DNA of 43,934 nucleotides from a virus. Taxonomy: Duplodnaviria; Heunggongvirae; Uroviricota; Caudoviricetes. Shown in pieces: positions 4,460-37,243 of the stretch. Numbering within the stretch: the first letter of the stretch is position 1; each line of letters starts with the position of its first letter. The stretch lies in IMG/VR virus record IMGVR_UViG_3300024054_000549; one strand, written 5' to 3'. Under the pieces are notes generated by a model. The model was not told the DNA's origin and made no database searches. It saw only the letters and a program-made list of their open reading frames with translations. A program made the translations under genes and the position numbers.

Positions 4460-4476
4460 AATTTTAACAAAATGAT

Positions 4477-5646
4477 TTAGGCGTCGGAATTGAAACAATC
4501 ACGAGTATAACATTTAGAAAGGTAAGGCGTTAATTCTTGCTCAATTCGATTAGCAATAATAATATCAGACATTTCATTAAAATCTTCAATATTGTTAATC
4601 ACAGGAATTCCATTGAAATTTGTATCTTTATGAGCTGGCTCATAAATAATCACATCAATGTTTGATTTTCTGATCTCTGAAATGATATCGAAGATCGCTG
4701 ATTCCCTGAAATTATCAGATCCTGCTTTCATAATTAGTCTAAAGATTCCAACTGTTTTGGGATTCTTAGATAGAATTTGATTTGAAATAAAATTCTTCCT
4801 GATTGAATTAGATTGTACGATAGCTGAGATAATTGAATTAGGCGTGTCCTTAAAGTTAGCTAGTAACTGTTTTGTATCTTTAGGGAAACAATAACCGCCA
4901 TACCCAAATGATGGATTGTTATAATGTGTTCCTATACGATGGTCTAGCGATACACCTTTGATAATATCTGATGCATTCAATCCATTTAATTCAGCGTATG
5001 AATCTAATTCATTAAAGAATGACACGCGCATCGCTAAATATGAATTGGCAAATAGTTTAACTGCTTCAGCCTCGGTTGGTTCAGTCAATAGAACCTCAAT
5101 ATTATCTTTTCTAGCTCCTTCTTTAAGAAGATTAGCAAAAATCTTAGCTCGTTCAGATTTTTCTCCAACAATGATTCGATCAGGATAAAGATTATCTTTT
5201 AGAGCCGTTCCTTCTCGAAGGAATTCTGGACTGAAAATAACATTTGATACATTAAGTTTCTTCCGGGTTTCAAGAACATATCCAACAGGAATTGTGCTCT
5301 TAATAACAATTGTGCATGAAGGTGAGTACTTATTAGCATCCTTAATAACATGTTCGATCAAAGATGTATTAAAGTACTTCGTTTCGGGATTATAATCTGT
5401 TGGTACTGCAACCACAACATAATCAGCACCCGTGTATGCTTCTTCTTTGTTCAAAGTACTCTTTAGATTAAGTTCTCCAGATGCTAAAAATTCAGAGATT
5501 AATTCGTCCTCAATCGGAGAAATTCCAGAGTTGATTTTGTTCACCTTCTCTTGATTCACATCTAGCATTACAACTTTATTTTTCTGAGCTAATAGAACAG
5601 CAACAGAACTTCCAACATACCCACTTCCAACAACAGCGATTTTCAT
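4477..5646 (-). CDS. ugd: UDP-glucose 6-dehydrogenase
   Basis: GSGYVG Rossmann motif, KSTIP, SPEFLREG, catalytic GYGGYCFPKD, SDNFRES; 389 aa like bacterial Ugd. Confidence 0.95.
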   Translation of the reverse strand: MKIAVVGSGYVGSSVAVLLAQKNKVVMLDVNQEKVNKINSGISPIEDELISEFLASGELNLKSTLNKEEAYTGADYVVVAVPTDYNPETKYFNTSLIEHVIKDANKYSPSCTIVIKSTIPVGYVLETRKKLNVSNVIFSPEFLREGTALKDNLYPDRIIVGEKSERAKIFANLLKEGARKDNIEVLLTEPTEAEAVKLFANSYLAMRVSFFNELDSYAELNGLNASDIIKGVSLDHRIGTHYNNPSFGYGGYCFPKDTKQLLANFKDTPNSIISAIVQSNSIRKNFISNQILSKNPKTVGIFRLIMKAGSDNFRESAIFDIISEIRKSNIDVIIYEPAHKDTNFNGIPVINNIEDFNEMSDIIIANRIEQELTPYLSKCYTRDCFNSDA

Positions 5647-6497
5647 TTCATTTCCTTTTTCAAATTTTCAATATAATCTTTTAAATTGTATTCAGCGCAC
5701 CAACCGAGTCGTTTAGTTCTCTCAGTAATAACGGGAGCTGACATTCTATTGCCCTTCCGTTCTGGTAACATTTCATAATCAGAACCGAACATTTCAGCTA
5801 TTTCAATTATAGAATATGATTTATCGTCACCTATGCCATATTCATCTCCATCTCCGTGCTCACCAATAAGAACAAGAGCATTAACCGTATCATTAACATG
5901 TGTAAAATTCCTTCTTTGTGTGCCTGGTGAAACTACTCCAAATTTTTCTGATTTTCTTAATTTCTCTGCAAATAAAGCAATAAGGGTGCTGTACGGCCCA
6001 GTTTTTATTTCATTCTTGCCGTAAACATTATAAAAATACGCTATTGCATATTTTAAGTTGAACCATTTCCCATAATTCTTTACTAATTCGGTATTGGATG
6101 ATTTTGACCAAGCATATGGTGATTCTGAAGCATTCGTTCCTGAATCACCAAATTTCGTACTGCTCCCTGCATAGATCAATTTAGAATCATTTACCCTGGC
6201 GAACTCAAGAACCTTAGAAGTTCCATTTTTATTGAACTCTAAAACTTGTTCAATATCTAAAAAACTTTGCTCAACCCTTGAGTACTCACCTAAATGGTAA
6301 ATAAGATCAGGTTTAAAATGAACCTTTTGAAAAATATCTACAGTTGACCCATAAATGTATTGAACTCCGGGAACATGATTATCTCTCGACCCAGTGAAAT
6401 AATTATCAAGCGAAACAACATCATGCCCAAGTTCATTTAATCTTTCACACAAATTAGACCCAATGAAGCCAGCACCACCAGTAACTAAAATTTTCAT
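5643..6497 (-). CDS. NAD-dependent nucleotide-sugar epimerase/dehydratase (extended SDR)
   Basis: TGGAGFIGS, YAWSK (YxxxK), YNVYG, RNFTHVND; 4-nt overlap with ugd. Confidence 0.9.
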   Translation of the reverse strand: MKILVTGGAGFIGSNLCERLNELGHDVVSLDNYFTGSRDNHVPGVQYIYGSTVDIFQKVHFKPDLIYHLGEYSRVEQSFLDIEQVLEFNKNGTSKVLEFARVNDSKLIYAGSSTKFGDSGTNASESPYAWSKSSNTELVKNYGKWFNLKYAIAYFYNVYGKNEIKTGPYSTLIALFAEKLRKSEKFGVVSPGTQRRNFTHVNDTVNALVLIGEHGDGDEYGIGDDKSYSIIEIAEMFGSDYEMLPERKGNRMSAPVITERTKRLGWCAEYNLKDYIENLKKEMK

Positions 6498-6540
6498 ATA
6501 TTTCCTTTGTGAAATATTCTATATCTAGATTATTTAAAAA

Positions 6541-7686
6541 TTACCAATCTAACGATTGAATTTTACTACGGTTGTTGAATTTTGTTATTGCGTTGTTCAG
6601 AATTGTTGAAATTCTTGATTTATATTTTTCTTTGCCCATTTGGGTCTCAGCAGCATTTGCTAATTCCTGACGTTCTGATAATGTCATATTCTTAAATACT
6701 GATACAGCATTTAAGAAATCTGATTTTGTTTTGATGAGTTTTAAGTACTTATGGTACTCTTTTGGAAGCATTTCGAGAGCTGGATGACCATTTTTATCTT
6801 TAAGTATTAAAGGTACACCTCTACTTAGAGATTCTAAAGATGTTATTGTAAATGTATCTGGATAATTACCAACAAACGTTACTTCTGATTTACCAATATT
6901 ATCCATAATCTCAGAATGATTAACATCTAATTCAATATCCTTCGAGTACTTATTTAATGCGTTAAGAACGTACTCATCTTGCTGATCTTTACTTTGATGT
7001 CCAAGAGTACTATAAGTTTTGACATTTCTTCCAGATCCTTCAAGATATATATTAATTAGAAATGTATCTTTTCCCTTAGATGCCGCTGAAACGTGTCTTA
7101 TGAATCCATCTGATTCTTGAACGGTAGTTTTTTCACAGTATTGAGGATAAAAAATTTCATCTGGAACGATACCGTCGAAATTCCATTCTGATCTTTTAGT
7201 ACTGTAGTATTTTATTATTCCAGCTTTATGGTATTCTGAAACAGCACAAAATGTACATCCATGTGTACTCACCATTTCATTAAGAAGATTAGCATTCAAA
7301 AAATCAGTCCAAAACCCAGGCATTGAATGAAGAACATAAACAATGGGAATATTCAGGTTTAATAATTCTTTATAGAATTTACTGAACTCATAATTGCTTA
7401 TGATAACATCTGGTTTAAATTTATGAATGTCGTTAATTATTTTCTTTTCAATGCTGCTCTTATGAGTTCTTGAAAATGATTTGATATCTTTTACATTATG
7501 ATTCACATAATAATCGATACCTGAGAAATCTTGATCAAGATCTGTGAATGCTGAGAACATTCTTACATCATGACCCATTTCTTTTAAGATATTGAATTGA
7601 GTTAATGCCGCAACATCGATCCCAGATACTCTTTTTTCCCTAGAAAAAAATGTTTTCCTGGAATAAGTTAAAATATATATTTTCAT
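6541..7686 (-). CDS. GT-B fold glycosyltransferase (GT4-like)
   Basis: N-terminal SG...LKEMGHDV and C-terminal DTFTITSLESLSRGVPLI, a variant of the ExFGxxxxEAxxxGxP donor-binding motif. Confidence 0.8.
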   Translation of the reverse strand: MKIYILTYSRKTFFSREKRVSGIDVAALTQFNILKEMGHDVRMFSAFTDLDQDFSGIDYYVNHNVKDIKSFSRTHKSSIEKKIINDIHKFKPDVIISNYEFSKFYKELLNLNIPIVYVLHSMPGFWTDFLNANLLNEMVSTHGCTFCAVSEYHKAGIIKYYSTKRSEWNFDGIVPDEIFYPQYCEKTTVQESDGFIRHVSAASKGKDTFLINIYLEGSGRNVKTYSTLGHQSKDQQDEYVLNALNKYSKDIELDVNHSEIMDNIGKSEVTFVGNYPDTFTITSLESLSRGVPLILKDKNGHPALEMLPKEYHKYLKLIKTKSDFLNAVSVFKNMTLSERQELANAAETQMGKEKYKSRISTILNNAITKFNNRSKIQSLDW

Positions 7687-7722: not shown

Positions 7723-7881
7723 CTATTTTTGGTCTTTACATTCTTTACAATCAATCACATTATGTTTTTTGCATGGCTTTGGTCGTTTAACTAAATCTAA
7801 TTTAGTTGTAACTGTGGCTATATCACCAGATGTTGTTTCTTCTGACAATTCTTTCAGGAAATTTTTGAAATTTTTAATCAT
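7723..7881 (-). CDS. Small Cys/His-rich protein (52 aa), not in the ORF track
   Basis: Hand translation: MIKNFKNFLKELSEETTSGDIATVTTKLDLVKRPKPCKKHNVIDCKECKDQK. ATGA overlap with the upstream stop; C-x2-H-x4-C-x2-C pattern. Confidence 0.65.
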   Translation of the reverse strand: MIKNFKNFLKELSEETTSGDIATVTTKLDLVKRPKPCKKHNVIDCKECKDQK

Positions 7882-8876
7882 TTTTCTATATCAATCCATT
7901 GTTTAATTTTTCTTGATCCAATGGGCATAATTCCAAACCTAGCACCATTTATTCCAAAATCTTTGCGGGAGCCTCCTTTATAAACAACTGATAAAATTGG
8001 CTCATAATTCCCAGTTAGTTTATCACCATTTTGATGAATATGATACGCAGATAATTCATAGTGCTGCCCCTTTTTGATTAGTTTAACCTCACCCTGAAGT
8101 AAAATACTGACATTTTGTTCACCTAATCTACGAGATTTGAAATCCTTCCCGTAAACTGCCATGTTCTTTAAATCTTTCGAATAAATTTCTGAAGCTGCTG
8201 TTACAGCAGGACTAAGTTTTTCACCATACATAGATTTAATTTTATCGACGAATTTCTGAACATTATCTGGTGTTGTTGGGTATTCTTTCTTTGAAACACC
8301 TCCCCAATTCTGAAAATCAGTTGGTGACCTCCCATCTTTATGTGATATCCATATACAGGCATCACCATTTTTATCTAAGAGATGAAAATCGGATTTTGGT
8401 GTTCCTCTCGTGGATTCTGCTCCAATTATATCATATTTTTTGTTATTACACTTCACAGTTATAAAAGATGAATTTGATTCTAGAATTGCATTCTTTATTT
8501 GAACTTGAAGGCTTTTTAATTGAGCATCTTCCTTAGCTGTTGAAGCCCCAGCACCCTTCCCACCTAGTTCTGAATCTTTGAACAATTCCGTTATCTTATA
8601 GAATGATTTACTTCCGGTTCTCGAATCGATAAGTTCAATTAATAATGGATCAGAGATTATTCTATTCTCAAGAAAATTGTTTATGTCCTCTGAAGATATT
8701 TTATTTTTGGAATTGAATTCTCTTTTGACTTTATTTATTGAAAATAAAGCTTTCCCAGTACAATTAAATAGTTCTGAGTTTTCCTTAATCAAAAATGATC
8801 CATCTGAATTTATTCTCTTAGTAATAATTTCTATGTTATTTCGTTTTGTTATATCTTTATACGTTATTTGTGACAT
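7878..8876 (-). CDS. Putative PD-(D/E)xK-fold nuclease-like protein (332 aa)
   Basis: E...PKSD...ISHK arrangement resembles the variant restriction-endonuclease active site seen in T4-like phage proteins. The ORF is solid; the function is tentative. Confidence 0.5.
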   Translation of the reverse strand: MSQITYKDITKRNNIEIITKRINSDGSFLIKENSELFNCTGKALFSINKVKREFNSKNKISSEDINNFLENRIISDPLLIELIDSRTGSKSFYKITELFKDSELGGKGAGASTAKEDAQLKSLQVQIKNAILESNSSFITVKCNNKKYDIIGAESTRGTPKSDFHLLDKNGDACIWISHKDGRSPTDFQNWGGVSKKEYPTTPDNVQKFVDKIKSMYGEKLSPAVTAASEIYSKDLKNMAVYGKDFKSRRLGEQNVSILLQGEVKLIKKGQHYELSAYHIHQNGDKLTGNYEPILSVVYKGGSRKDFGINGARFGIMPIGSRKIKQWIDIEK

Positions 8877-10371
8877 AGTAGTTCAATGCTTTTCTATACA
8901 TATCATGTATTTCTTTTGGTGTATTCTTTAAAAAGAATTCTTTATCATTAATGTTAGATATAATCTTACTTGCTGATATACCTGATTCATTTCTTTGTAA
9001 TTCTCTAACTGATATTCCAACGTTATTTCTAATTTGTTCCATATAAGATTGTACTCTATCAGAACCTGCGTAAATTATATTTATGTTAATATCAATTTTA
9101 TTTAGAATCGATAGAATATTTCCATTATTAGAATGAACTATTTGAACGTTAGGAAAACACTTCTTAACCATTTCCTCACGGAAATCTTTAGTTTCAATTG
9201 TATCGGATCCAGTTACTATACACACAACGACATTATCGTAAAGTGTTAATGCTCGTTTAATTAATTTATAGTGACCTTCTTTTGTGAATATTCTGAATTT
9301 ACCAATTACTAATACGTTATTGTTCCCTTTCATTTTTTTAATGAGAAGAGTTTTTGCATTCAGTTGAATATCATCTTTTATATTAGTTTCAGTTTTAACG
9401 GCATGAGAAAATGTTAATTTCATTCGTTTCAGTGCTAATGAAAGTTCAGCAAGAACATCATCTAATTTTTTTGATGGCTGTACAGAATTAACTAACTCTA
9501 GAGAAACTCGTTTAACATTATCCCAATACTTTGCTTCTTCAGCTGGATTATTGTCCTTGTATTTAAGTTTATTAATCAATCTTGCTTCTTGATCGAGTTG
9601 ATATTTTTGTTGGAACTTTAAGATTTTATCCTTGAACTTAATTACTATTCCTTCTTCATTTCCACCGTATTTTGATTCTATACTTAGAAATAAATCCTTG
9701 ATATCATTTAATACATCTATGGAATCCCACCGTATTACATTCTTTCTTTTATCAAATTCAGCCCGAAGATTTTTGTTAATAATACCAGATTCGAATGATA
9801 TTTGAGATCCAAGAATCCCCTTAAAAAGTAATTGTGGTACATCTATTTTCAGTTCTTTTGCGTACTCATTTCGTTTTTCAGTAAAGAATCCAGATGGAGA
9901 TGTTATTAATTTTCCAAAATTCTCTTTAAAAGTAGAAGCACTGTATCCTATCAGAACCATTTTGTGTTTAGTACTATAGTTACTTGAAATAGTTGGTTTG
10001 GACATTAGAAATTCTATAAATAATTCTGTCCCAACGGGAATACTATTTTTACTTAAACTATCAAAATGTTCAAATACTAATTTGAATTGACTCGAACCAA
10101 TTGATTCTTTCTTTATTTTTGATGTTGGTTGAAAATTATATTCTGTACTATATAGAATATTTCCCTTATAAGCAAAAATATAATCTTTAAGATTACCATT
10201 ATTAGCTTGTTTAATAACAGTAAGCTTCACACCATCCGTTTTATGTTCAACAGAAACTTCTGAGAATAAAAAATCTTTTATTTTAGAATCAGTTGTTAAA
10301 TACTTTTCGGCAGCTTGAATCGAAATATCAAGTTGCTGTTTTGATTCACTTATATATTCATAAAAATTCAT
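8857..10371 (-). CDS. Fusion of an ATP-dependent ligase-like adenylation domain and a HIGH-superfamily (cytidyltransferase/NMNAT-like) domain
   Basis: N-terminal half has EHKTDG (KxDG motif I), EGIVIK (motif IV) and KILKFQ (motif V). C-terminal half has GKFRIFTKEGH, AGSDR and ISASK. Confidence 0.7.
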   Translation of the reverse strand: MNFYEYISESKQQLDISIQAAEKYLTTDSKIKDFLFSEVSVEHKTDGVKLTVIKQANNGNLKDYIFAYKGNILYSTEYNFQPTSKIKKESIGSSQFKLVFEHFDSLSKNSIPVGTELFIEFLMSKPTISSNYSTKHKMVLIGYSASTFKENFGKLITSPSGFFTEKRNEYAKELKIDVPQLLFKGILGSQISFESGIINKNLRAEFDKRKNVIRWDSIDVLNDIKDLFLSIESKYGGNEEGIVIKFKDKILKFQQKYQLDQEARLINKLKYKDNNPAEEAKYWDNVKRVSLELVNSVQPSKKLDDVLAELSLALKRMKLTFSHAVKTETNIKDDIQLNAKTLLIKKMKGNNNVLVIGKFRIFTKEGHYKLIKRALTLYDNVVVCIVTGSDTIETKDFREEMVKKCFPNVQIVHSNNGNILSILNKIDININIIYAGSDRVQSYMEQIRNNVGISVRELQRNESGISASKIISNINDKEFFLKNTPKEIHDMYRKALNYYVTNNV

Positions 10372-11573
10372 AGCGATCTAAGATAATCCCTGAATGATTC
10401 GTGTATTTTTCCTCTTTGACCATAATCTTTATAGTACTCTTCGGCAAGTTTTACTGATTCATCTTTCATACCGAACTCTTTGATGAATTTTTGATATCCA
10501 CTGAATTTAATCTGAAAATCAAGTTCAGCATTGTTAAATTCTAATTCTTGAGCTCTTTGAGGTTTTAGACCCCAAATTAGTTCAACATATCTGATGTATG
10601 TATTTTTTATCTCATTCTTAGATAAGAACTTTTTCATAAGTTCTATAACACCAATGAAAGATCCGAATAGTTTAACATCTGATTCTCGGCTATTTAATTG
10701 CTTAAATGACAGTTTATAAATTTCAGCAACAATTGTCTCGTAAGTACTGTTCTTAGTTGGAATTTCTTTATAAACTTGCTTTCCGTCTAATACTATGACC
10801 TTTCCAGTTTTTGGGTCGATTAAAGGTTCATAGGCTATTCTGATTCCCTTTCCTACTGAAAATTTAAGCATTTTAGGAATCAAATGCGTTTTATTTGCAC
10901 TTAAAGTTATATTTTCCGGTGTACTACTCTGTGTTGCTATGACTATATCTTCACGAATTGAAGCAGCTCCTATTAATGCTCTGATCAAATATTTGTGATG
11001 AACAGCTTTTACATTAATTTTAGCATCATCAAAAGAAGAACTATGTGAAAATTTAGCCCATTCGGTTGGTTTATTATTCTCGAACTCAAGGAATTCAAAA
11101 TCAACTTGAGCATAAGCTTTTTGACCGTTTGGGAAATCAACCATAATAACTGAGTTAATCTGCTCACCTATCGAGGAAATAGTCAGCTTATTTGACCCCA
11201 TATAACGAGCACCATTGATTATCTCTTTCCCCTCTATTGAGTCAAGATATTTCCAAAGATCTTCTTTTAATTCTTCTGGAACAGTAATATCAATATCACC
11301 AGCACTTGGTTTGTACTTCATAACTTCTTCATCACTTAATGACTGATCCATTATAAATGAAGTACTTCCATTGAAAACAAATCCAGTTATTAAATGTGTT
11401 TCATCAATCCAAATTGGCTTTTTGAACTTTGACTTGAAATCCTTATTCATGAACTTAAAAATTTCTATAAATTTCTTCATGAATTCTTGTCTACCGATTT
11501 CCTTGATCGGTATTTTTTGAGCTTTCGTTTCCTCTCCGCTGGATTTAATTACTGCTGTTACATTTCCACCCAT
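10368..11573 (-). CDS. Pol-beta-superfamily nucleotidyltransferase-like protein (401 aa)
   Basis: NGST...SAGDIDIT (GS + DxD) and a third acidic residue in QVDF; GGNV start seen in phage NTase-like proteins. Confidence 0.65.
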   Translation of the reverse strand: MGGNVTAVIKSSGEETKAQKIPIKEIGRQEFMKKFIEIFKFMNKDFKSKFKKPIWIDETHLITGFVFNGSTSFIMDQSLSDEEVMKYKPSAGDIDITVPEELKEDLWKYLDSIEGKEIINGARYMGSNKLTISSIGEQINSVIMVDFPNGQKAYAQVDFEFLEFENNKPTEWAKFSHSSSFDDAKINVKAVHHKYLIRALIGAASIREDIVIATQSSTPENITLSANKTHLIPKMLKFSVGKGIRIAYEPLIDPKTGKVIVLDGKQVYKEIPTKNSTYETIVAEIYKLSFKQLNSRESDVKLFGSFIGVIELMKKFLSKNEIKNTYIRYVELIWGLKPQRAQELEFNNAELDFQIKFSGYQKFIKEFGMKDESVKLAEEYYKDYGQRGKIHESFRDYLRSL

Positions 11574-11580
11574 AGAACAC

Positions 11581-12606
11581 CTATGCTAAAGTATTCTTTA
11601 ATTCTTCTTCATTAATAAAATCTTTGAATGATTGAGACTCAAATAATGCTGATCTATATGGTAAAATTACTAAATGTGTTCGATATTTTGAACTAATTAA
11701 ATTATGAGGATTTTTTATATCGAACGAGCATTCAATAGGTTTAACTATCATAGTACCTGATGGATCTGTTTGAATAATAGATGTTGAAAATATTTTTACA
11801 TCTGAACCTTCAATTGGAGGAACTTCATCCTTTAATCTTACTGGTCTAAAGAATGGATTTTTATCAATTTCTTCCCTACCAAGTTTAGATAATGTAGTAA
11901 TAAGATCCAAAGGCTCAAAAGCATTTTCTTCTAGAGCTTTCATGGCGTATTCTCTGCGTTTAATTGAAGATTTATGTCCATCGCCATCTTTTGGTTGGTA
12001 CCCAAATTTCGTTTCAAGAACACCAGAATTGGTTCTTACAATTAAATAATCTTCTTTAATTTCTAGAACTTCTGTAGCATATTCCTCTGGTTGAACAACA
12101 TCTTCAAATCTCTGACCATCCTTGAGTGTACCTCTGTATTTTGCTGCAATTTCTTCGGGAATTGAGGTCTCAATTATGAATAATTGATCGCCGTTAGTAA
12201 TTAAAGTACACCCATCGAACTTATTTTCCTGAATCAATTTAACTGAATCTTTGATATTATTTTGCTTTAGAGCTTTCCGAATAACCCTTCCATTGCTAGA
12301 AATTGGCATATCATTAACATCGTTCTTTGCTTTTCCATCCTTTTTGTCAGAATGATTATTCAGAGCAGAATTAACCATACTAATATATGTGCCATCTTTG
12401 AGAACAGAAACGCCCTCGGTCCAATCGGTATCATTGTCTATTAAGAATAATTGTGATGCACCATGCTCAGATACTGTGTACCGTCTGATTTTATAGTCAG
12501 CATTGTAAACGCGATCTCTAATCTTAGCTAAACGCCATTTTGCATCTTTAGTTGGTTTCCCAGTCTTTTTATCTCTGGGTAATTTCATTGCTACAGCAAC
12601 ACACAT
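11581..12606 (-). CDS. N-terminal nucleophile (Ntn) hydrolase-like protein (341 aa)
   Basis: Cys2 start (MCVAVAMK), KIRDR, WTEGV, MVNSAL and RTN match the Ntn fold pattern; GGAG RBS. Confidence 0.65.
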   Translation of the reverse strand: MCVAVAMKLPRDKKTGKPTKDAKWRLAKIRDRVYNADYKIRRYTVSEHGASQLFLIDNDTDWTEGVSVLKDGTYISMVNSALNNHSDKKDGKAKNDVNDMPISSNGRVIRKALKQNNIKDSVKLIQENKFDGCTLITNGDQLFIIETSIPEEIAAKYRGTLKDGQRFEDVVQPEEYATEVLEIKEDYLIVRTNSGVLETKFGYQPKDGDGHKSSIKRREYAMKALEENAFEPLDLITTLSKLGREEIDKNPFFRPVRLKDEVPPIEGSDVKIFSTSIIQTDPSGTMIVKPIECSFDIKNPHNLISSKYRTHLVILPYRSALFESQSFKDFINEEELKNTLA

Positions 12607-12632
12607 AGTTAGTCTCCATGAATGATTTTAAT

Positions 12633-12640
12633 TATTTATA
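12633..12640 (-). promoter_or_regulatory. T4-type late promoter TATAAATA
   Basis: Exact consensus in the intergenic space, about 27 nt upstream of the Ntn hydrolase ATG and just downstream of a terminator. Confidence 0.75.
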
Positions 12641-12654
12641 TTTGAAGGCGATGT

Positions 12655-12682
12655 AAAAAAATCCACCATTTGCAGGTGGATT
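12655..12682 (-). terminator. Intrinsic terminator after the VWA gene
   Basis: AATCCACC-7 nt-GGTGGATT hairpin followed by a T run on the minus strand. Confidence 0.8.
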
Positions 12683-12704
12683 ATTTATGATAACAGAAAT
12701 TATC

Positions 12705-14981
12705 TCATTCCAAAATAGTCATCCATTTATGTGCACCATAAGTTTTTGACATTAAATCATATGAAGATTTATCAGTAATGAACAACGCTACTGAATTCTT
12801 ACGAACTTTAGCTAATTTAAAGAACTTAAATGTTTCTTTATCATGAACCAAATCAGCATCTGTGAACATAATAATATTCATATTATTTTCATGGAAATAT
12901 TCAATTATCTTGTGCATCTGTGGTATATATTTTGTACCAGAAGCATAACCTACACTTAATAATTTTTGAAGTTGTTGTTTCTGACCGTACTTAATATCTT
13001 TAGGTTTAGTAAGTAAAACATCATGATTAATCAACTTTTCAGATTCCATCGCGTTAATATTAACCTTATGAACTTCAAAATCTGTACTGAACTTAATAAC
13101 GAACATATTGCTAAGTTCTTTTTTATTGTCTTTAAGAAGTTTAAGAATTTCTTTATTGAAATTTCCTACAACATTCATAACAGAACCAGAAGTATCAATT
13201 ACAAATACTAAACCTTTTTTATTACTGTCAAATACAACTTCACCGGGTGTAATTCTTCCAGCACCAGTTTGAGATGCTGTAACCATTGAAGATGTAGCTT
13301 GTCTGGACATTTTTGAATATGTATCCTCAGCTTCACCGTTTCCGGTTGGAATCATTTTTTTGAGAATTTTTTTCCAATTGATAGTTACTTTTGTATCATC
13401 AAATTCAATTTTTGCTGTACCAGAACTATTAATATTACTCTTGACAGATGTATTATCGGAATCTTTTTTCTCTAATGCTGTTTTAGCATCATCATTACCG
13501 TCGTCTCTTTTACTGATGTTTTCTCTATTCTTTTTCATTGCTTCATCAATACTTTTTGCTATTTTATCGGCTGGATGAGCATCATTATTTCCTTGCCCTG
13601 ATTGTCCTGGCTGACCTGATTGTCCTTGACCTTGACCTTGTTGTCCTTGATCTTGCCCAGGCTGACCTGATTGTCCTTGACCTTGACCTTGTTGTCCTTG
13701 ATCTTGCCCAGACTGATCTTGTTGTCCTTGACCTTGACCTTGTTGACCTTGATCTTGCCCAGACTGATCTTGTTGACCTTGATCTTGCCCAGACTGATCT
13801 TGTTGACCTTGCTGTCCTTGACCTTGCTGTCCTTGACCTTGTCCCTGATCTTGTCCCTGATCTTGTCCAGGCTGATCTTGTTGATCTTGTCCTTGACCTT
13901 GTTGTCCTTTACCTTGTTGACCTTGACCCTGTTGTCCTTGTTGATCACCAGATTGAGAATCCTTTCCTCCTTGTGATGGTGTATCATCAGAATTATCCAT
14001 ATGATCATCCATACCGGATTCCATGGATTGCTTCATTTTTTCTGTATCTTCTGGACTCTGATTGAAAAATTCTTCAATAACAGCTTCAATCATATCTTCG
14101 TATGTTTCAAATTTGTCATAGTTTATTTCTGAACTGAACAACCCAACTGGAAGCTGTTCATATCCAGACTTAACAAGCTCCCAGTTATTGATAAAATCAC
14201 CAACATAATTAAGTACAGAATTAGCGTTAGAACCAATTTTTGGATGTTTTTTCAATATTTTATCAACCATTTTTTTAGTATAGAAATGATCTCCACTTGA
14301 AAAATGCATCAATTCATGCAAAATAACAAACTCAAGATAACAGTAGTGATCTGGTATTGGGCCACCATTACTTTTGTATTTCTTAGATTTTGGTTTAACA
14401 TTGTTTATTAATGCAGAAATCGCTAATGTTTCAGAGAATTTTCTATTAAATACCATCTCGGCATTAGGTGTACAAAATGCTGTTTTGCAATTATTCCGTG
14501 CGTTTTCTCTTAATTTTTTATCATTAATTAATGGAAGATGATCTGGAGTAATAAAGAAAAATGGCTTAACAGCTTTTGTTTCAAATGGATTTCTTAATGG
14601 AAAGAATCTAGCGTTCTCACCAAGAACATATTGAGTTAAATCAAAAAAGTAATCTCTATCTAACAAATCTTCTCGATCTTTAACACCAAGAGGCTCTAAA
14701 TTAATATCGTCTGGATTTAACTCAGAAATAAGAGAGAATGCTATAGATTCAGCAGCGTTATTAACGGCATCTTTGTTCATTTTAGATGAACCAAGCTGTG
14801 AAATATGCTTATGGTATTGTTCGTTAAAATATTCCTGAGCTTCAGATAAATCTATGCCTTTTGTTTTGGCATAGACTTCAATAGACTTCTTGATATTTGA
14901 ATCATTAGGTGAACTCTTTTTTAATTCAAGATTAATCTTTAATGATTCCAAACGTTCATTTATAAAATTCAAAAAACTCAT
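12705..14981 (-). CDS. Zincin-like metallopeptidase + Q/G-rich linker + VWA domain protein (DUF2201-like architecture)
   Basis: TAFCT, HELMH (HExxH), long QG linker, DTSGS MIDAS and FTD. Start moved from TTG 14996 to ATG 14981. Confidence 0.85.
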   Translation of the reverse strand: MSFLNFINERLESLKINLELKKSSPNDSNIKKSIEVYAKTKGIDLSEAQEYFNEQYHKHISQLGSSKMNKDAVNNAAESIAFSLISELNPDDINLEPLGVKDREDLLDRDYFFDLTQYVLGENARFFPLRNPFETKAVKPFFFITPDHLPLINDKKLRENARNNCKTAFCTPNAEMVFNRKFSETLAISALINNVKPKSKKYKSNGGPIPDHYCYLEFVILHELMHFSSGDHFYTKKMVDKILKKHPKIGSNANSVLNYVGDFINNWELVKSGYEQLPVGLFSSEINYDKFETYEDMIEAVIEEFFNQSPEDTEKMKQSMESGMDDHMDNSDDTPSQGGKDSQSGDQQGQQGQGQQGKGQQGQGQDQQDQPGQDQGQDQGQGQGQQGQGQQGQQDQSGQDQGQQDQSGQDQGQQGQGQGQQDQSGQDQGQQGQGQGQSGQPGQDQGQQGQGQGQSGQPGQSGQGNNDAHPADKIAKSIDEAMKKNRENISKRDDGNDDAKTALEKKDSDNTSVKSNINSSGTAKIEFDDTKVTINWKKILKKMIPTGNGEAEDTYSKMSRQATSSMVTASQTGAGRITPGEVVFDSNKKGLVFVIDTSGSVMNVVGNFNKEILKLLKDNKKELSNMFVIKFSTDFEVHKVNINAMESEKLINHDVLLTKPKDIKYGQKQQLQKLLSVGYASGTKYIPQMHKIIEYFHENNMNIIMFTDADLVHDKETFKFFKLAKVRKNSVALFITDKSSYDLMSKTYGAHKWMTILE
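13585..13975 (-). repeat. Low-complexity coding repeat encoding a Gln/Gly/Asp linker
   Basis: Repeated ccttga, ccttgttgt and gatcttgcccagact units encode QGQGQ and QDQSGQDQG blocks. Confidence 0.85.
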
Positions 14982-14999
14982 TTTTCTATAATCCAAAAA

Positions 15000-17864
15000 T
15001 TAAAAACTCTTTAATTTTTTCATAGTTTCTTCATTTTGAAGAACATCAAGAATATCAATCTTATTAGAACTTAATAATGCTACGATTCTCGAACCTATTG
15101 CTTTCTTGAGTTGATCAGCATAGTTATTTGAAGCATTAAGCTTTTCAAGAGATTTAGCAATTTGGTCGTAAAGTTTTAATGTCTTATCTAGTATCTCTGC
15201 ACCAGAAGTAGAATTAAAGTATTCATCTACTATAGTTGCAACATCTTGTAGCATTTCTGTTGAGCTGAAATCCTTAATGTACGAGCCAATAACACCCTTA
15301 TCTAAGAATGTAACATCTCCATCAGCATTCTTAAGAATCTGAACTAAACTGAGAGTATTAACTGATTTTTTCGTTCTAATTGTTTCAAAAGATTTTTTGA
15401 ATTTTTCATTTCCAACAATTTTCTTTCCTAAAGTATTTGTAAAACCTTCTATTTCTTGTTTCAAGGTTATCATTTTGAATGTTGTTACAAATGATTTAGC
15501 AGTTACATTGATAGCTTCATCAATGAACTTCTTGTACTCTTCATCAGAATAACTTCCATTTAAATCCCAACCCATATCATCAAATGAATCTTCAATTTGA
15601 GTCATAGTATTTGAGATGCACTCTGTCATTTCTCTTGGAGACACATAGAACGAATCTACACCATCACTCCACCAGAATGGTTGAATATCAATATCTTCAA
15701 TATCGTTCCCATCGGAATCCTTAGCACTCTTGAACTCTAATGCTAACTGATACATTATATTTGAGACAGATTCTGTGAGATCAAATCCCATACGTTCGGA
15801 TAGTTTAGTTAAGTTTTCTTTCGTTTTGATGTAGTTAAATGTCTCAGTGAAATTTCCAGATGAAGGAATAATATCGAGAACGTCTCTAGTATGAGTTGTG
15901 AACTCTATAGCACCAATATCATTAGGGTTAATTGCTCCGGTAATGATAATGTCATCTGGCAATTTAACATGTTCGAACTCTTTTTCGAGAAGAATCTTAC
16001 GAATAGAATTGAATACAGGAACAGAAGCTCTATTCAGTTCATCGAATAGAAGAATGATGTTATATTTTCTTCCTTCTTGTCTATAATCATTTATCTGTTC
16101 ATTATATTCCTTCATTATAGTTATATAAAGATTAGATTCTGAAAAATTAGTGGTTATATTGTCTTGGCCTTTTGACATATCAGCAATAGGCATGCCTGTA
16201 ATATCTTCTGGCGTTAAATTAGATACATCGATATGAATGTATCCCATTTTCATATCTTCAGATAATTTAACCATTTGTGTTGTTTTGCCGATACCAGGCT
16301 GACCTGAGACTACAGGAACATATTTTCTGCTATCTCCAAGTTTAATTTTAAGTTCTAGTTCAGTTTTTAACTGATCACGCCACTGAGATTTTTTAACTGG
16401 TGTTCTTAATATATTCTCAATATTAATTTGAACACCTTCTGGAGTTGTTTCTTTAATAAGATCTGTGGCTATTTTTGTAAATTTATCAAGAAGTGGAATA
16501 GATGATTTTTCATCTACATAATTACTTAAGTTATTTTTTATGAATCCTAGTAATTCTCTAGCAGAATCTTCAGAATTAACTGGAATTAATGAATCTATAC
16601 AGATAAGCATTTGCTCCAATCGTCTTGGAGATAATCTAACATTAGCTGATTCATCATTAAACCCAAGTTCTTTGTCTGTTAATTCATTCATGAATTTATT
16701 CCAAACTTCAGGCTTAATTGAAATCCCAGTTGGTGTTCCTACTTCATAGGTTCCATCATCTTTTGGAATTTCATTTTTATCTTCGGGGTTATTAACATAT
16801 TTCCCGTACATATAAGACATGAAATCCTCTTTTGAAGAAACATCATAGTCCATTAAATGGAAATCTTGATTCAGAGGAATATCTTCAACACCTTCATCGT
16901 TAATGTTCGTGGCCATGATGATATAAACTCCTTTCGGAATTTTATCATTGCCTATTTTTCCATTAAGAATGTTCCGAAGAACGTTTCTAATTTTAATTGA
17001 TGCTGTTCTATAGAATTCATCTAAGAATAAAATAGCATTGTATGATTCTGCAACCTTTTCAATTCTCTTCTGGAGAATAGGATAAATATCTCTAAGAATT
17101 TTATTCTTATTGATCTCCGTTTTTATTTGATCTGGTGTTCTTTTTGTTTTAGACTTTAATTGCGTAACTAGATTTGATTCAGCTTGAACAACCTTCATCT
17201 GTTGAACGGAATCGTCAACTGTAAGATTACCTTGACGAGTTTTTGGTCCATCAATAACTAAAAAAGGAATGTTAATAAGATGTTCTTGAGTAATATGTGG
17301 TGCTTCAATAACAACTAAAGGAATACCAGTTAAAGTACTTAACGATCTGATAAAAGATGTTTTACCAGTACCTGGATCACCACCTAGCATATATGTAGTT
17401 TTAACAGTCCCCTCAGCAAATGCCTTCATATGCGAAAGGATTGTTTTCATCTGATCGACATATTTCGAACTAGAACTCATTTTTGGAACTAAGAACTTCT
17501 TTTCAATTAGCTTAGATATATCTTTAACACCGACAGCTAAATCTGAATCTTGTTCAGTTCCAGAATCTTTATTATTTTTTGAAAGCCATTCCAGACCAAG
17601 TTCTGTGATTTTATAATCACCAGTTTTCCCATTTTCTCTTGCTATCATTTTTAATTTTAGCAATACACCGCGCATTGGATGCCCATCTTCTGGAAATTCT
17701 GCTCTGATTTTTTTATCAGCTGTTGGCTTCCAAGTGTCGGTGCCAAATAAATCATGCATTTTTCTTAGCATTTCTCCGGGTGTTTTGCCGGATTCATCCT
17801 CAGAATTCATGTCTAAAGTTTTAGCTTCACCTAGATGCTGTTTAATAAATTCGTTAAATTCCAT
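15000..17864 (-). CDS. Tandem AAA+ ATPase (MoxR-like, two modules) with a possible N-terminal winged helix
   Basis: Walker A GDPGTGKT and GQPGIGKT; Walker B LFLDEF and LLFDEL; ATN and AIN sensor-1. Start moved from TTG 17876 to ATG 17864. Confidence 0.85.
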   Translation of the reverse strand: MEFNEFIKQHLGEAKTLDMNSEDESGKTPGEMLRKMHDLFGTDTWKPTADKKIRAEFPEDGHPMRGVLLKLKMIARENGKTGDYKITELGLEWLSKNNKDSGTEQDSDLAVGVKDISKLIEKKFLVPKMSSSSKYVDQMKTILSHMKAFAEGTVKTTYMLGGDPGTGKTSFIRSLSTLTGIPLVVIEAPHITQEHLINIPFLVIDGPKTRQGNLTVDDSVQQMKVVQAESNLVTQLKSKTKRTPDQIKTEINKNKILRDIYPILQKRIEKVAESYNAILFLDEFYRTASIKIRNVLRNILNGKIGNDKIPKGVYIIMATNINDEGVEDIPLNQDFHLMDYDVSSKEDFMSYMYGKYVNNPEDKNEIPKDDGTYEVGTPTGISIKPEVWNKFMNELTDKELGFNDESANVRLSPRRLEQMLICIDSLIPVNSEDSARELLGFIKNNLSNYVDEKSSIPLLDKFTKIATDLIKETTPEGVQINIENILRTPVKKSQWRDQLKTELELKIKLGDSRKYVPVVSGQPGIGKTTQMVKLSEDMKMGYIHIDVSNLTPEDITGMPIADMSKGQDNITTNFSESNLYITIMKEYNEQINDYRQEGRKYNIILLFDELNRASVPVFNSIRKILLEKEFEHVKLPDDIIITGAINPNDIGAIEFTTHTRDVLDIIPSSGNFTETFNYIKTKENLTKLSERMGFDLTESVSNIMYQLALEFKSAKDSDGNDIEDIDIQPFWWSDGVDSFYVSPREMTECISNTMTQIEDSFDDMGWDLNGSYSDEEYKKFIDEAINVTAKSFVTTFKMITLKQEIEGFTNTLGKKIVGNEKFKKSFETIRTKKSVNTLSLVQILKNADGDVTFLDKGVIGSYIKDFSSTEMLQDVATIVDEYFNSTSGAEILDKTLKLYDQIAKSLEKLNASNNYADQLKKAIGSRIVALLSSNKIDILDVLQNEETMKKLKSF

Positions 17865-17866
17865 AT

Positions 17867-18127
17867 TTATGACCAATTTAAAATTTTGTTAAAAGTTTCT
17901 GGGGATCTCTCTTTAAGTTTCATATAATAAACGTACTTAAAATAATAATCACCATCTGTTTGAGATAACAAAGGAATGTCATATTTTAAACCAGTGTCTG
18001 GATTTATCATATTGAAATATTTTGCATCTTCAGATATATTTGTTTCAGTTGGAATTTCTTTATTCTGAATCGGTTTAACAACTATCAATTCATTTACATA
18101 ATCTGTAATAAAGGTTCTAAATTTCAT
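17867..18127 (-). CDS. Hypothetical protein (86 aa)
   Basis: AAGGA RBS and an upstream late promoter; stop lies 2 nt before the AAA gene ATG. Confidence 0.7.
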   Translation of the reverse strand: MKFRTFITDYVNELIVVKPIQNKEIPTETNISEDAKYFNMINPDTGLKYDIPLLSQTDGDYYFKYVYYMKLKERSPETFNKILNWS

Positions 18128-18152: not shown

Positions 18153-18160
18153 TATTTATA
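18153..18160 (-). promoter_or_regulatory. T4-type late promoter TATAAATA
   Basis: Exact consensus, intergenic, upstream of the 86-aa/AAA/VWA unit. Confidence 0.75.
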
Positions 18161-18202: not shown

Positions 18203-19510
18203 TTATATACCATAATTTTCTAAGAATTTTTTAAAAATAATAAAATCTTTTAATGAACTACCGTACAAATTATTTTTCATAATTACATTTACTAATAATT
18301 CATTATTTATTTTAGTTCTTTTAGCTAAATATTTGATTTGAGACATATCCAAGCGATATATATTATTCTTAAATATAATTTCAAAGTCTGAAAGATTTGG
18401 ATCGTAATGATATCTCGATCCCCATATCTTGTTTAATTTTCTGAATTCTTCCTCAGATATATACACCATTGCAGAATCTTTTACGTATTTAGGATCAAAG
18501 AACTCTGGATTCTGAATTATTTCTTCTTCCGTAAAAAATCTTTCGTTAGTAAAATCGATGGTTTCTGAATCTTTTAATTTTAATTCTTTAATTTCTTTAA
18601 GACTTATTTTTGTATTTTTAACCATTAAGCTAGGTGATAAGAAATCTTTGAACTTTATTATTTGCTCACGCGTGAGAAATTTTATTACATAATGTGGAAA
18701 ATTTCCATCGGGTGTATTGAATTTCCTTTGAAGATATTCATCTGGTAAAATAAGGTTTGGGTGTTCTTCAACGTATTTAAATAAATCTGTAAATTCAACA
18801 TTGTGAGAAGTATTTATCAAGAACTCTAAGAATCTAGATTCAGGAAAATCTTTAATTAGAACATAAACACCTTGAAAAGATTTTTTAGCATAATCTATTA
18901 CTTCTTCATCAGATTTAATGAATTTATGAACAAATTCACTTAAATTTTCTATCAAAATATTATGTCTAACTTGTTCATTTATTTTTAAGATTGTATCTAA
19001 GAACTTTTTTCCTTCTTCTTGACTTAATACGGTACTGTCAAGTTCACCAATTTTTACATTAGAACTCAAAGTTTTTAGAATACCTATAATTTTTTCTATA
19101 TTATTAGGTTTTAAGAACAATTCAAAGATTTTTTTATTAGCTACTGCCGTACTGATAAGTAAGAATATATTGACATCGTTTATACGAGTATAAAACATCT
19201 TAGATATTTCATAAATACTAATAAGAAAATCCTCCCATTGAGTCTCATTTGGTTTTGAGCTTGCTGAGCTTGATTTAATAACATTTTTAAGCACATTATT
19301 AAAAATGTTATCTTTGAAAATGTTTACACCGTATTTTCCTTTATAGATTTCAAAAATAGTTCCATAATTATTCATTATAAAATCTAGAATAAAATCAAAT
19401 TCAAAAGAATAATTAGATTTATCAGTACTGAAATCAAGTAAGATATCAGTCTGTAATAAACCTTTCCAGTCTTTTTTATTGATCAGATCTTGTTTTTCTT
19501 GTGTGTACAT
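18203..19510 (-). CDS. Paralogue array member 4 (435 aa, most divergent), unknown function
   Basis: Shares MxTQEKQDLIxKKDW and RFFTEEEIIQNPEFFDP with the three neighbouring genes. Confidence 0.85.
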   Translation of the reverse strand: MYTQEKQDLINKKDWKGLLQTDILLDFSTDKSNYSFEFDFILDFIMNNYGTIFEIYKGKYGVNIFKDNIFNNVLKNVIKSSSASSKPNETQWEDFLISIYEISKMFYTRINDVNIFLLISTAVANKKIFELFLKPNNIEKIIGILKTLSSNVKIGELDSTVLSQEEGKKFLDTILKINEQVRHNILIENLSEFVHKFIKSDEEVIDYAKKSFQGVYVLIKDFPESRFLEFLINTSHNVEFTDLFKYVEEHPNLILPDEYLQRKFNTPDGNFPHYVIKFLTREQIIKFKDFLSPSLMVKNTKISLKEIKELKLKDSETIDFTNERFFTEEEIIQNPEFFDPKYVKDSAMVYISEEEFRKLNKIWGSRYHYDPNLSDFEIIFKNNIYRLDMSQIKYLAKRTKINNELLVNVIMKNNLYGSSLKDFIIFKKFLENYGI

Positions 19511-19523
19511 GCAATTTCCTATA

Positions 19524-20816
19524 TTAATAGCTATTTATGAATTCTTTAATGAAATTAAAATTTTCTAATTTTGGATTTAAGTAACTACTAGATATTGCAT
19601 TAACTAACTCTGTATTGTTTATTCCTGTTTTCCTAATCAAATATCTTAAAATATCTATAGAAAAATATTGTAAACTTGCTAAACTTTCAAACAATGATGA
19701 AAATTTAGATAAATTATTGTCGTATTTCTGTTTTTTGCCCCAAGTTTTATTTAACAGTGCAAATGTACTCTCTGAAATATATAGATGACCAACATTTTTA
19801 ACAGATTCTGGATCAAAGAACGCTGGATTCTGAATTATTTCTTCTTCGGTAAAGAATCTAATTTTAGATACATCAAAGAATTCGACAGATTTGAATTCTT
19901 TAACCTTATCTAATGGGATTCTTTTATTAAACACCATTCCGTATATATCTATTTGATTCTTATATTTTTCAGTTTGTTCTAAAGTTAGAATAGAAGCAAA
20001 ATTATTTAGTTTATTTTCTTCAAATATAGTTTTAACTAAATCATCAGGAAGAATCATATCTCTGTGAGATTTTACATAAAGAAGTACATCAGTAGATTCA
20101 ATAATTTTTAGATTTTTTCTAATAAAACTAATAAATCTATCTTCTGAAAATGTTTTGATAGCATTCTCCAAAGGAATATTTCCTTTGTTAAAGAATGAAA
20201 CAAGTTCATCATCTGTTTTAAACTCTTTTAGCAGTCTATTAATAGTTTTATCATCAAAATAAAATTCAATCGTGTGAAAGCTTCTATTATTCTTATAGAT
20301 AGTTTCGAATGCATCAAAAAGAGCTATAAAATCGTTAACAGATGAGCCTTCAGAATTAAAAGAATTAAAAGTTATAGATCTTTTCACTACCTGAAATAAT
20401 TCATAGAATTCAGGATTTTTACAATTAATTATGAACTTAATATACTCGGAATTTTTATTTTCATTATCAAGGAATGTATTAATATCTAAAGAAGATATAT
20501 CATTTGCTTTATTCTTTTTAATTTTAAAAAATTCATTAACGATTAATCCCCATTGATTGGCAGTTATATTAAGATTTAATTCTTTAGCTCTGAAGAACAT
20601 ATTTTTAGATATATACCGAAAACTCACCGTTTTATTAGTTGTAGATTTAATTTCATTAAATCTTTTTAGAACGAATTCATATATAAAATCAAAATCAAAA
20701 ACGTATTTTCTGAATTCTGAATTGTTATGATCGTTTAATTCGTCTAAGATATCCGTTCGTAATAAACTCTTCCAGTCTTTTTTATTGATCAGATCTTGTT
20801 TTTCTTGTGTGAACAT
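19524..20816 (-). CDS. Paralogue array member 3 (430 aa), unknown function
   Basis: Same N- and C-terminal signature blocks; AGGA RBS. Confidence 0.85.
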   Translation of the reverse strand: MFTQEKQDLINKKDWKSLLRTDILDELNDHNNSEFRKYVFDFDFIYEFVLKRFNEIKSTTNKTVSFRYISKNMFFRAKELNLNITANQWGLIVNEFFKIKKNKANDISSLDINTFLDNENKNSEYIKFIINCKNPEFYELFQVVKRSITFNSFNSEGSSVNDFIALFDAFETIYKNNRSFHTIEFYFDDKTINRLLKEFKTDDELVSFFNKGNIPLENAIKTFSEDRFISFIRKNLKIIESTDVLLYVKSHRDMILPDDLVKTIFEENKLNNFASILTLEQTEKYKNQIDIYGMVFNKRIPLDKVKEFKSVEFFDVSKIRFFTEEEIIQNPAFFDPESVKNVGHLYISESTFALLNKTWGKKQKYDNNLSKFSSLFESLASLQYFSIDILRYLIRKTGINNTELVNAISSSYLNPKLENFNFIKEFINSY

Positions 20817-20829
20817 GTGTTTTCCTATA

Positions 20830-22116: not shown

Positions 22117-22125
22117 TGGGTTTCC

Positions 22126-26166: not shown

Positions 26167-26703
26167 TTAACCAGTTTGACGGCGCTTTTTAACGAAGTGC
26201 TTACCTGATTTTATTGCTTCTCTTCTAGATTTTTGATAAGCTGATATTTTTTGCTTGTTAGCTCTATAATATCTTTTTCTAGCTTGTCTAGTTTGTCTAT
26301 TTTTTCTTTTTCTAGCTGCTGCTGTGCGACGCATTGTAGCTCTAGAATTAGACATGAACTTACGCCGTTTTCGATTTCTGTTAGCAGATAGCATCCGTCT
26401 ATTAACACCTTCTTGAACCTCATACTCAGATTCATCTTCAGGTGTTTCTGGATCATCTTGCTCTTCTTGAAGTAATTCTAAGATTATTTCAAGAGTTTCA
26501 GGATCAAGAGCTGATAACATTTCTTGAACATCTGATAGTGCAAATACTTCAAATTCATCTGGATTTTCTTCCTCGGTATCGAAGAATTCATAATAGATAA
26601 CATATCCGAACTCATCAATTTCATCATCTGACAATTCGGAAAGTAAAGCATTTATCGAAGCAAGAATATCATCTTCGAAAAGAAAATCTTTAAAAGAAAT
26701 CAT
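26167..26703 (-). CDS. Putative prohead core/internal head protein with acidic N-half and basic C-half
   Basis: Very D/E-rich first ~98 aa, then an R/K-rich tail. GGAG RBS, upstream late promoter and MISFKDFLFE start. Confidence 0.6.
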   Translation of the reverse strand: MISFKDFLFEDDILASINALLSELSDDEIDEFGYVIYYEFFDTEEENPDEFEVFALSDVQEMLSALDPETLEIILELLQEEQDDPETPEDESEYEVQEGVNRRMLSANRNRKRRKFMSNSRATMRRTAAARKRKNRQTRQARKRYYRANKQKISAYQKSRREAIKSGKHFVKKRRQTG

Positions 26704-26726: not shown

Positions 26727-26734
26727 TATTTATA
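26727..26734 (-). promoter_or_regulatory. T4-type late promoter TATAAATA
   Basis: Exact consensus about 24 nt upstream of the ATG at 26703. Confidence 0.75.
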
Positions 26735-37235: not shown

Positions 37236-37243
37236 TATTTATA
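37236..37243 (-). promoter_or_regulatory. T4-type late promoter TATAAATA
   Basis: Exact consensus, intergenic, upstream of the capsid-family gene. Confidence 0.75.

Follow-up and report, generated by a model that had tools for sequence, protein, structure and literature searches.

The DNA analysed here, called the window throughout, is a stretch of 43,934 nucleotides (IMG/VR virus record IMGVR_UViG_3300024054_000549) from the genome of a T4-like myophage, where it belongs to a contig of 160 kb. It encodes a T4-type large terminase, ribonucleotide reductase (RNR), gp32, a primase, helicases and a gp23/gp24-like head protein, and has an overall G+C content of about 31%. Among cultured phages, the closest to it are the Vibrio phages phiKT1024, Va1 and pv27, with 52-59% amino-acid identity, and the Firehammervirus phages of Campylobacter, for example CP220. 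We examined a block of minus-strand genes at positions 7723-18127, several of which begin with a similar short peptide, hereafter the tag, which a sequence-only reading of the window had likened to the capsid targeting sequence (CTS) that internal proteins of T4 carry. A megablast search of this block against cultured phages gave no match, and a search for related loci with the 954-amino-acid (aa) AAA+ protein alone in a viral contig collection returned no relatives.

Two units can be distinguished in the block, each behind an exact copy of the T4-type late promoter box TATAAATA on the coding strand, as the earlier reading had stated. The box of unit 1 (18153-18160) lies 26 nucleotides 5′ of the ATG at 18127 and precedes the genes for an 86-aa protein of unknown function (17867-18127), a 954-aa double AAA+ (MoxR-like) ATPase (15000-17864) and a 758-aa protein that combines a zincin-like and a VWA domain (12705-14981). 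The box of unit 2 is at 12633-12640. It is followed by genes for a 341-aa Cys-Ntn-hydrolase-like protein (11581-12606), a 401-aa Pol-beta/PolX-like nucleotidyltransferase (10368-11573), a 504-aa RNA ligase-adenylyltransferase fusion (8857-10371), a 332-aa restriction-endonuclease-like protein (7878-8876) and a small, basic, Cys-containing protein of 52 aa (7723-7881). Away from the block, on the same strand, another box (26727-26734) heads the gene of a 178-aa protein with an acidic N-terminal half and a very basic C-terminal half (26167-26703). Besides those at 18153 and 12633, the coding strand has five further TATAAATA boxes, and each of the 7 is situated just upstream of a gene start. Judged from these boxes, which would act as promoters, the tagged units are probably transcribed late, together with the head genes.

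The tag can be written as M-x(0-3)-F-x-x-[FY]-[IL]-x(1-5)-E, with F-x-x-[FY]-[IL]-x-E as a strict form. Six of the 37 genes of the window start with it, and all six N-termini, which belong to unrelated proteins, were found in the sequence as the earlier reading had quoted them: MIKNFKNFLKE (52-aa protein, start at 7881), MNFYEYISE (ligase fusion, 10371), MSFLNFINE (zincin-VWA protein, 14981), MEFNEFIKQHLGE (AAA+ protein, 17864), MKFRTFITDYVNE (86-aa protein, 18127) and MISFKDFLFE (178-aa protein, 26703). The other 31 genes of the window, the replication genes among them, do not start with the motif; for the replication genes this had been claimed. From the frequency of the motif inside proteins, 0.07 N-terminal matches were expected in the window (6 seen), and 0.02 matches to the strict form (4 seen); shuffling of residues within each N-terminus yielded 0.03 matches per window. 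F-x-x-[FY] is present in all six tags and is directly followed by [IL]-x-E in four of them, the remaining two having L-G-E and V-N-E at residues 11-13. The six tags have different DNA sequences and different surroundings upstream. An origin as copies of one DNA cassette was rejected on these grounds: it is therefore the peptide that is conserved, and not a DNA cassette.

Proteins that carry the tag

The tagged proteins of unit 1 were compared with their homologues, among them those encoded by 22 kb of an ENA contig of 159 kb (L014), a region that shares 63-70% identity with the window. L014 has tagged orthologues of the 86-aa protein, the AAA+ protein, the zincin-VWA protein, the ligase fusion and the small basic protein. 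Its orthologue of the 86-aa protein is 103 aa long, starts MEFRDFIT...VNE and is likewise encoded ahead of the AAA+ gene. The AAA+ protein itself (tag MEFNEFIKQHLGE|AK, the bar marking the predicted cut) has two Walker A/B modules, with Walker A motifs at residues 162 and 521 (GDPGTGKT and GQPGIGKT), and the two modules match Pfam AAA, AAA_3 and AAA_5. About 20 close homologues start with M-x-F-x-x-[FYL]-[IL]...[IL]-x-E|A, the end of which is also given as ...[IL]-N-E|A[RK].

In the 758-aa protein (MSFLNFINE), motifs and a Pfam DUF2201_N match identify a zincin-like domain (HELMH) and a VWA domain (DTSGS MIDAS). Its homologues start with MKF[ST]SFLGE, MKFMEFINE and similar tags, and the distant ones with a short peptide ending in hydrophobic-x-E|A. 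The AAA+ and zincin-VWA genes are adjacent in the window, in L014 and in the Ralstonia phage RsoM2USA. In this adjacency, and in their Walker A/B, MIDAS and HExxH motifs, they resemble known pairs of a MoxR AAA+ and a VWA protein (DUF2201 metallopeptidase-like plus VWA). Unlike those, the AAA+ protein here is double and begins with an additional domain of about 130 residues, and both partners are tagged. The distant AAA+ homologues of 856 aa, including RsoM2USA_86 of the Ralstonia jumbo phage, have neither this N-terminal region nor the tag. Between the zincin-like and VWA domains, at residues ~330-460, lies a low-complexity linker of about 130 residues rich in Q, G and D (GQQGQGQ... repeats); its length is variable, and homologues range from 680 to 836 aa.

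The ligase fusion carries the tag MNFYEYISE|SK in front of an Rnl2-like RNA ligase domain (KTDG), itself followed by a PPAT/NMNAT-like adenylyltransferase domain (TKEGH). This assignment comes from motifs and from an AlphaFold2 model. K44, D46 and G47 (KxDG) are invariant in the alignment. The model has a predicted local distance difference test (pLDDT) score of 88, with residues 1-16, which hold the tag, scoring below 50 and lying outside the fold. Its N-terminal part matches T4 Rnl2 (2hvr) and fungal Trl1-LIG, and its C-terminal part PPAT/NMNAT; the ligase matches have E values of ~1e-6 but low TM-scores (~0.23 by query, 0.34 by target). Among 120 homologues of the fusion, 106 are tagged, the tag standing just before a conserved LDISI. 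In these 106 proteins, position -6 is F in 84, position -3 is Y, F or W in 92, and position -2 is L or I in 104, the other positions being variable; purifying selection acts on the four key positions of the tag. The untagged homologues, those of cultured Vibrio and Campylobacter phages included, start with MSKQHLDISI or MQKDQIDISI, that is, at the +1 of the cut predicted after MNFYEYISE|. With the T4 RNA repair enzymes Pnkp, Rnl1 and Rnl2, the system shares the Rnl2-like domain with its KxDG and, in relatives, a tagged P-loop kinase encoded beside the ligase. In T4, however, these enzymes lack a fused PPAT-like adenylyltransferase and, to our knowledge, are not known to be packaged in the head.

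Two further tagged proteins are small. The 52-aa protein, which resembles internal proteins, belongs to a family tagged in 11 of 12 members, and its orthologue in phiKT1024 starts with MSKRGFKKFLEE. The orthologue of the 178-aa protein in the same Vibrio phage starts with MKFKQFLAE, has a late box and is encoded near the terminase gene. In all, phiKT1024 has five to six small tagged proteins, these two orthologues included, and the same number is given for Va1 and pv27.

At the N-terminus of two other enzymes of unit 2 no tag was found, and a similar peptide occurs at their C-terminus. The 341-aa Ntn-like protein starts with MC... (MCVAV) and ends with ...LFE|SQSFKDFINE|EELKNTLA, the tag being encoded at about 11584-11637. 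The three members found of its family all start with MC... and end with [LM]FE followed by F-[KR]-[DE]-[FML]-[IL]. Atlas feature matches, which are a lead only, are to clusters in which 13-43% of members have AAT/CBAH Ntn families; by analogy with Cys-Ntn hydrolases, it would need a free N-terminal Cys. The 401-aa PolX-like protein starts with MGGNV and ends with the tag-like peptide IHE|SFRDYLRSL. Residues G2, G3, N4, G69, S70, D93 and D95 are invariant in its family. Its AlphaFold2 model (pLDDT 88, with low confidence at the C-terminal end, so that here too the tag falls outside the fold) has as best PDB matches only Pol lambda/beta structures, all weak (E ~1e-3, TM 0.3-0.45), and Atlas gave a lead, again no more than that, to NTP_transf_2 and DNA_pol_B_palm. 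Most members of the PolX-like family start with MGGN..., and four have an N-terminal peptide ending in ...E|GGN; a cut after this Glu would thus give them the same N-terminus as the others. Most members also end with [ILV]-x-E|SFRxYL, a peptide missing only in the two members with long N-terminal tags. Since the PolX-like proteins begin either with MGGN or with tag-E|GGN, and since the untagged ligase homologues begin at +1, the tag is modular and the predicted cut site consistent. Overall, the core motif is only about 2-fold enriched at C-termini, driven by the PolX-like and Ntn-like families, and C-terminal tagging is therefore family-specific and not general.

The 332-aa protein (MSQITY at its start) is untagged, and its assignment rests on leads to restriction-endonuclease-like families; some of its homologues elsewhere are tagged. 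Its C-terminus (SRKIKQWI, KQWIDIEK) was considered as a tag and rejected, SRK-x-x-x-W-[IV] being the conserved end of the family. Like the majority of the tagged proteins of relatives, the 332-, 401- and 341-aa proteins gave no Pfam match. The cargo list of the sequence-only reading must be amended in consequence of these N-termini: the AAA+ protein, the zincin-VWA protein and the ligase fusion do carry the tag, the nuclease-like protein does not, and the Ntn-like and PolX-like enzymes, listed alongside them, have a tag-like peptide at the C-terminus only.

Two observations were made in passing. In L014 (12260-14636), the PolX-like gene is split into parts of 225 and 230 aa by an inserted open reading frame (ORF) of 336 aa, suspected from its position to be a homing endonuclease. 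Next to unit 1 in the window, at 18203-23418 (minus strand), are four tandem paralogous genes of ~430 aa each, with ~24.5% G+C and each with its own TATAAATA or CATAAATA box. Their products begin with MFTQEKQDLI..., and three of the four share a terminal box F-x-FIKEFINSY; two paralogues in L014 end with IIKKFITKF and IVKNFIKKF. These ends are tag-like, yet do not fit the strict spacing, and no family match was found for the proteins.

Occurrence among relatives and likeness to the T4 signal

Enrichment of the tag was also found in relatives. In a set made up of the window, L014 and 21 IMG/VR loci (23 loci, 528 ORFs), 33 starts have the strict tag, compared to 0.54 expected. Families recurrently tagged are a kinase (7/7), the small basic protein, the acid/basic protein, a family of 250-264 aa and several proteins of unknown function. 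In L014 the kinase, a P-loop protein of the AAA_33 type, is encoded just upstream of the ligase gene. Scans of the complete genomes of three relatives gave 7 strict matches in G001, 1 in G002 and none in G003.

A trivial origin of the resemblance would be AT-rich codon usage, or the demands of translation initiation on the first codons, with no role at the protein level. The base composition of the window indeed favours F, I, K, N and Y, and N-terminal codons are often AT-rich. However, with shuffled N-termini 0.35 matches were obtained, versus 30 observed, and G003, complete and equally AT-rich, has none; a compositional artefact was rejected on these two counts. The low numbers in G003 and G002 mean that the motif is specific and lineage-dependent, and not a by-product of AT composition. 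Furthermore, the DNA of the tags differs while the amino-acid pattern is conserved, and the same peptide is found at C-termini. We give this explanation almost no credence. What the sequences do show is the pattern, its enrichment, its conservation and its modularity: the tag is genuine, greatly exceeds chance expectation and is maintained by selection. It behaves as a detachable address peptide would, with the determinants of the T4 CTS.

The CTS of T4 is MKTYQEFIAE (PMC8442874). Suppressor analysis has assigned targeting mainly to its residues 4 and 7, and processing to residues 8 and 10, the protease gp21 cutting after L/I-x-E (PMC9026906). The spacing of the window motif (aromatic, aromatic, I/L, E) is that of these four residues. 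When the whole T4 genome (271 ORFs) was scanned with the same regular expression, only ipII, ipIII and gp61.1 were retrieved; for ipII and ipIII, both CTS-coding sites were confirmed in the T4 record. One relative of the window phage (L031) has a tag, MKTYVEFITE|AR, nearly identical to the T4 sequence. The comparison of the tag with the T4 CTS made in the earlier reading is well founded, as the mapped determinants match and the same pattern retrieves T4 internal-protein genes.

The likeness extends further. Both peptides are N-terminal and about 10 residues long, with hydrophobic or aromatic residues at the two targeting positions, and both are found in T4-like phages with late promoters, on small basic proteins (IPII and IPIII in T4, from which gp21 removes the CTS). 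Relatives of the window phage also have a T4-type prohead protease. PF03420 (gp21-type protease, Peptidase_S77) was found in G001, G002 and G003, and phiKT1024 has, at the gp21 position beside scaffold and capsid genes, a 232-aa protein annotated as 'prohead core protein precursor', which we take to be the likely prohead protease. Comparative evidence strongly supports the claim that the tag is a T4-type signal for targeting and processing: orthologues keep it, untagged ones start at the predicted cut, and the protease is present in relatives. Unlike the T4 CTS, the tag is found here on large multidomain enzymes (504, 758 and 954 aa, and a kinase in relatives) across a wide uncultivated clade, it occurs also at C-termini, behind a cleavage site, its consensus is M-[NK]-F-x-x-[FY]-[IL]-x-E and not MKTYQEFIAE, and it is known from sequences alone.

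The peptide might instead be a shared signal unrelated to the capsid: a degron, an amphipathic helix binding a membrane or a partner, or a propeptide that another protease removes and that holds the enzymes inactive until late in infection. It is short and amphipathic, and its link to the capsid is indirect in this phage. But such a signal would have to match, by coincidence, the gp21 L/I-x-E site and each of the four determinants mapped in the T4 CTS, and come near to identity with the T4 sequence in MKTYVEFITE. In addition, the same pattern retrieves the T4 internal-protein genes, and the tag is present on small basic proteins of the internal-protein type. We regard this alternative as quite improbable.

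T4 gp61.1, the third ORF retrieved in the scan (NC_000866, 18966-19130, minus strand, locus L059), is a 54-aa hypothetical protein encoded next to the primase gene; its start, MKTFKEFIKE, is CTS-like.

Proposed loading into the head and possible roles of the cargo

From these comparisons we infer docking, cleavage, retention, ejection and function of the tagged proteins, as follows. The peptide M-x-[FY]-x-x-[FY]-[IL]-x-E would be this lineage's version of the T4 CTS. Made late, the tagged proteins would dock onto the prohead scaffolding core by the amphipathic tag, a gp21-type prohead protease would cut after the Glu of [ILV]-x-E, and the mature protein would stay in the head with the DNA. Candidate cargo with an N-terminal tag would be the double AAA+ protein, its zincin-VWA partner, the 86-aa protein, the Rnl2-type ligase-adenylyltransferase, the 52-aa basic protein and the 178-aa acid/basic protein. 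The two enzymes from families with conserved N-termini (Cys-Ntn-like and PolX-like GGN) would be brought in by the peptide at their C-terminus, behind [ILV]-x-E. Loading of the tagged proteins into the prohead, with trimming after the Glu, has in our estimate a probability of roughly 75%. Judging by analogy from Alt, CTS fusions and the internal proteins of T4, it is plausible that they are then kept in the mature head, ejected, and put to use in counter-defence or repair.

Alt, the T4 ADP-ribosyltransferase, is a large enzyme with short propeptides, N- and C-terminal, cut by gp21; it is loaded into the head and delivered with the DNA. Its processing at the C-terminus, a precedent for the C-terminal tags, is known, and had long been expected for gp21 (PMC9026906). 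Unlike T4, with this one enzyme, the window has several, of other classes, and no homology to Alt was found. In phage P1 (Dar) and in giant phages of the phiKZ/SPN3US type, the head likewise takes up large enzymes or numerous proteins, whose ejection protects the entering genome or starts infection. Ejection proteins of the giant phages are cut after Glu by a protease related to gp21, as proposed here, but their propeptides are mostly longer than 100 residues and the cleavage motif is S/A-x-E; in P1, loading depends on DarA/Hdf and not on a 10-residue tag.

Several points weigh against loading and delivery. The tags of the AAA+ and 86-aa proteins are irregular, with the Glu at residue 13, and the 86-aa protein has an Asp at the canonical position. 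No cultured phage of the collection searched has the tagged large enzymes. The 108-kDa AAA+ protein and the 86-kDa VWA protein would be bulky cargo, each with about 10 internal [IL]-x-E sites, so that they could be degraded like scaffold and not kept. Finally, passage through the tail and action inside the host would be suggested purely by analogy.

The internal sites also fit another explanation, in which the tag still directs proteins to the core of the prohead and is still cut by the protease, the large enzymes acting during assembly and being degraded or expelled with the scaffold and not injected as effectors. The AAA+/VWA pair, for instance, could be a remodeller or chaperone of the core or of head maturation. 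The T4 core proteins gp22, gp67 and gp68 are likewise targeted, cleaved and removed. MoxR/VWA pairs are generally chaperone-like, and in the Acidianus two-tailed virus a virion-borne pair of MoxR AAA+ and VWA proteins acts in extracellular tail development. On the other hand, an RNA ligase, a kinase and a PolX-like enzyme have no obvious job in head assembly, and the conservation of the mature N-termini suggests that processing is meant to leave active proteins. In T4, moreover, proteins with a fused CTS stay in the head and reach the host (PMC9026906). We consider a role confined to assembly unlikely.

The enzyme types, together with the tagged kinase of relatives, point to nucleic-acid end-healing and sealing, accompanied by an ATP-driven remodeller. 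Unit 2, taken with that kinase, looks like an end-healing and sealing set of kinase, polymerase and ligase. More tentatively, and with greater doubt than hope of being right in every part, we propose that a single short address peptide serves a widespread, uncultivated branch of T4-like phages at either end of proteins, at the C-terminus when a native N-terminus is needed, with the prohead protease releasing it in both cases. A changeable set of ready-made enzymes (RNA ligase-adenylyltransferase, P-loop kinase, PolX-like polymerase, Ntn hydrolase, double AAA+/VWA), loaded into the capsid in this way, might then be injected, and repair phage nucleic acids or host tRNAs, or shield them from defence nucleases, before phage genes are expressed.

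The concept is already known from T4. What is new is that large enzymes keep the tag throughout a clade of T4-like phages of ordinary size, that an AAA+/VWA pair is among the tagged candidate cargo, and that the tag is placed at N- and C-termini in a complementary manner. Should the tags act as they do in T4, one could predict from gene starts alone the proteins that a T4-like phage delivers with its DNA, and the set found here would be unusually rich in large enzymes. The injected repertoire, which so far consists of the enzyme Alt and of small inhibitors like IPI, would be extended to enzymes of the RNA/DNA repair type and to an AAA+/VWA machine, and counter-defence in the first minute of infection could be enzymatic. 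The tag apparently moves to the C-terminus of enzymes that need a native N-terminus, a design principle that can be tested and that is of use in engineering T4-type capsids loaded with cargo, and the tag logo from >100 natural variants provides a map of tolerated substitutions.

Neighbouring genes

The gp23/gp24-like head protein (290 aa, 36322-37194, minus strand) has a TATAAATA box at 37236, a PHROG major-head-protein match and a faint Pfam Gp23 mark. Its N-terminus, MEKLNTKLLE, has L-x-E at residue 10, to be compared with MAKINELLRE in T4 gp24. Elsewhere, precomputed Pfam marks on identical genes of sister contigs designate a Tad2-like protein (PF11195; 38233-38493, minus strand) and a Tad3 protein (PF25185; 35522-36022, plus strand), both of anti-Thoeris families. 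Directly downstream of the tagged unit, at 2183-7686 (minus strand), lies a sugar-nucleotide/glycosyltransferase cluster, possibly a pathway for glycosylating DNA bases; it comprises a TAGT-family protein of 771 aa (PF20691), a UDP-glucose dehydrogenase, an SDR epimerase and a GT4 glycosyltransferase. The G+C content rises to 41% in the first 2 kb (positions 1-1400 of the window), versus ~31% elsewhere.

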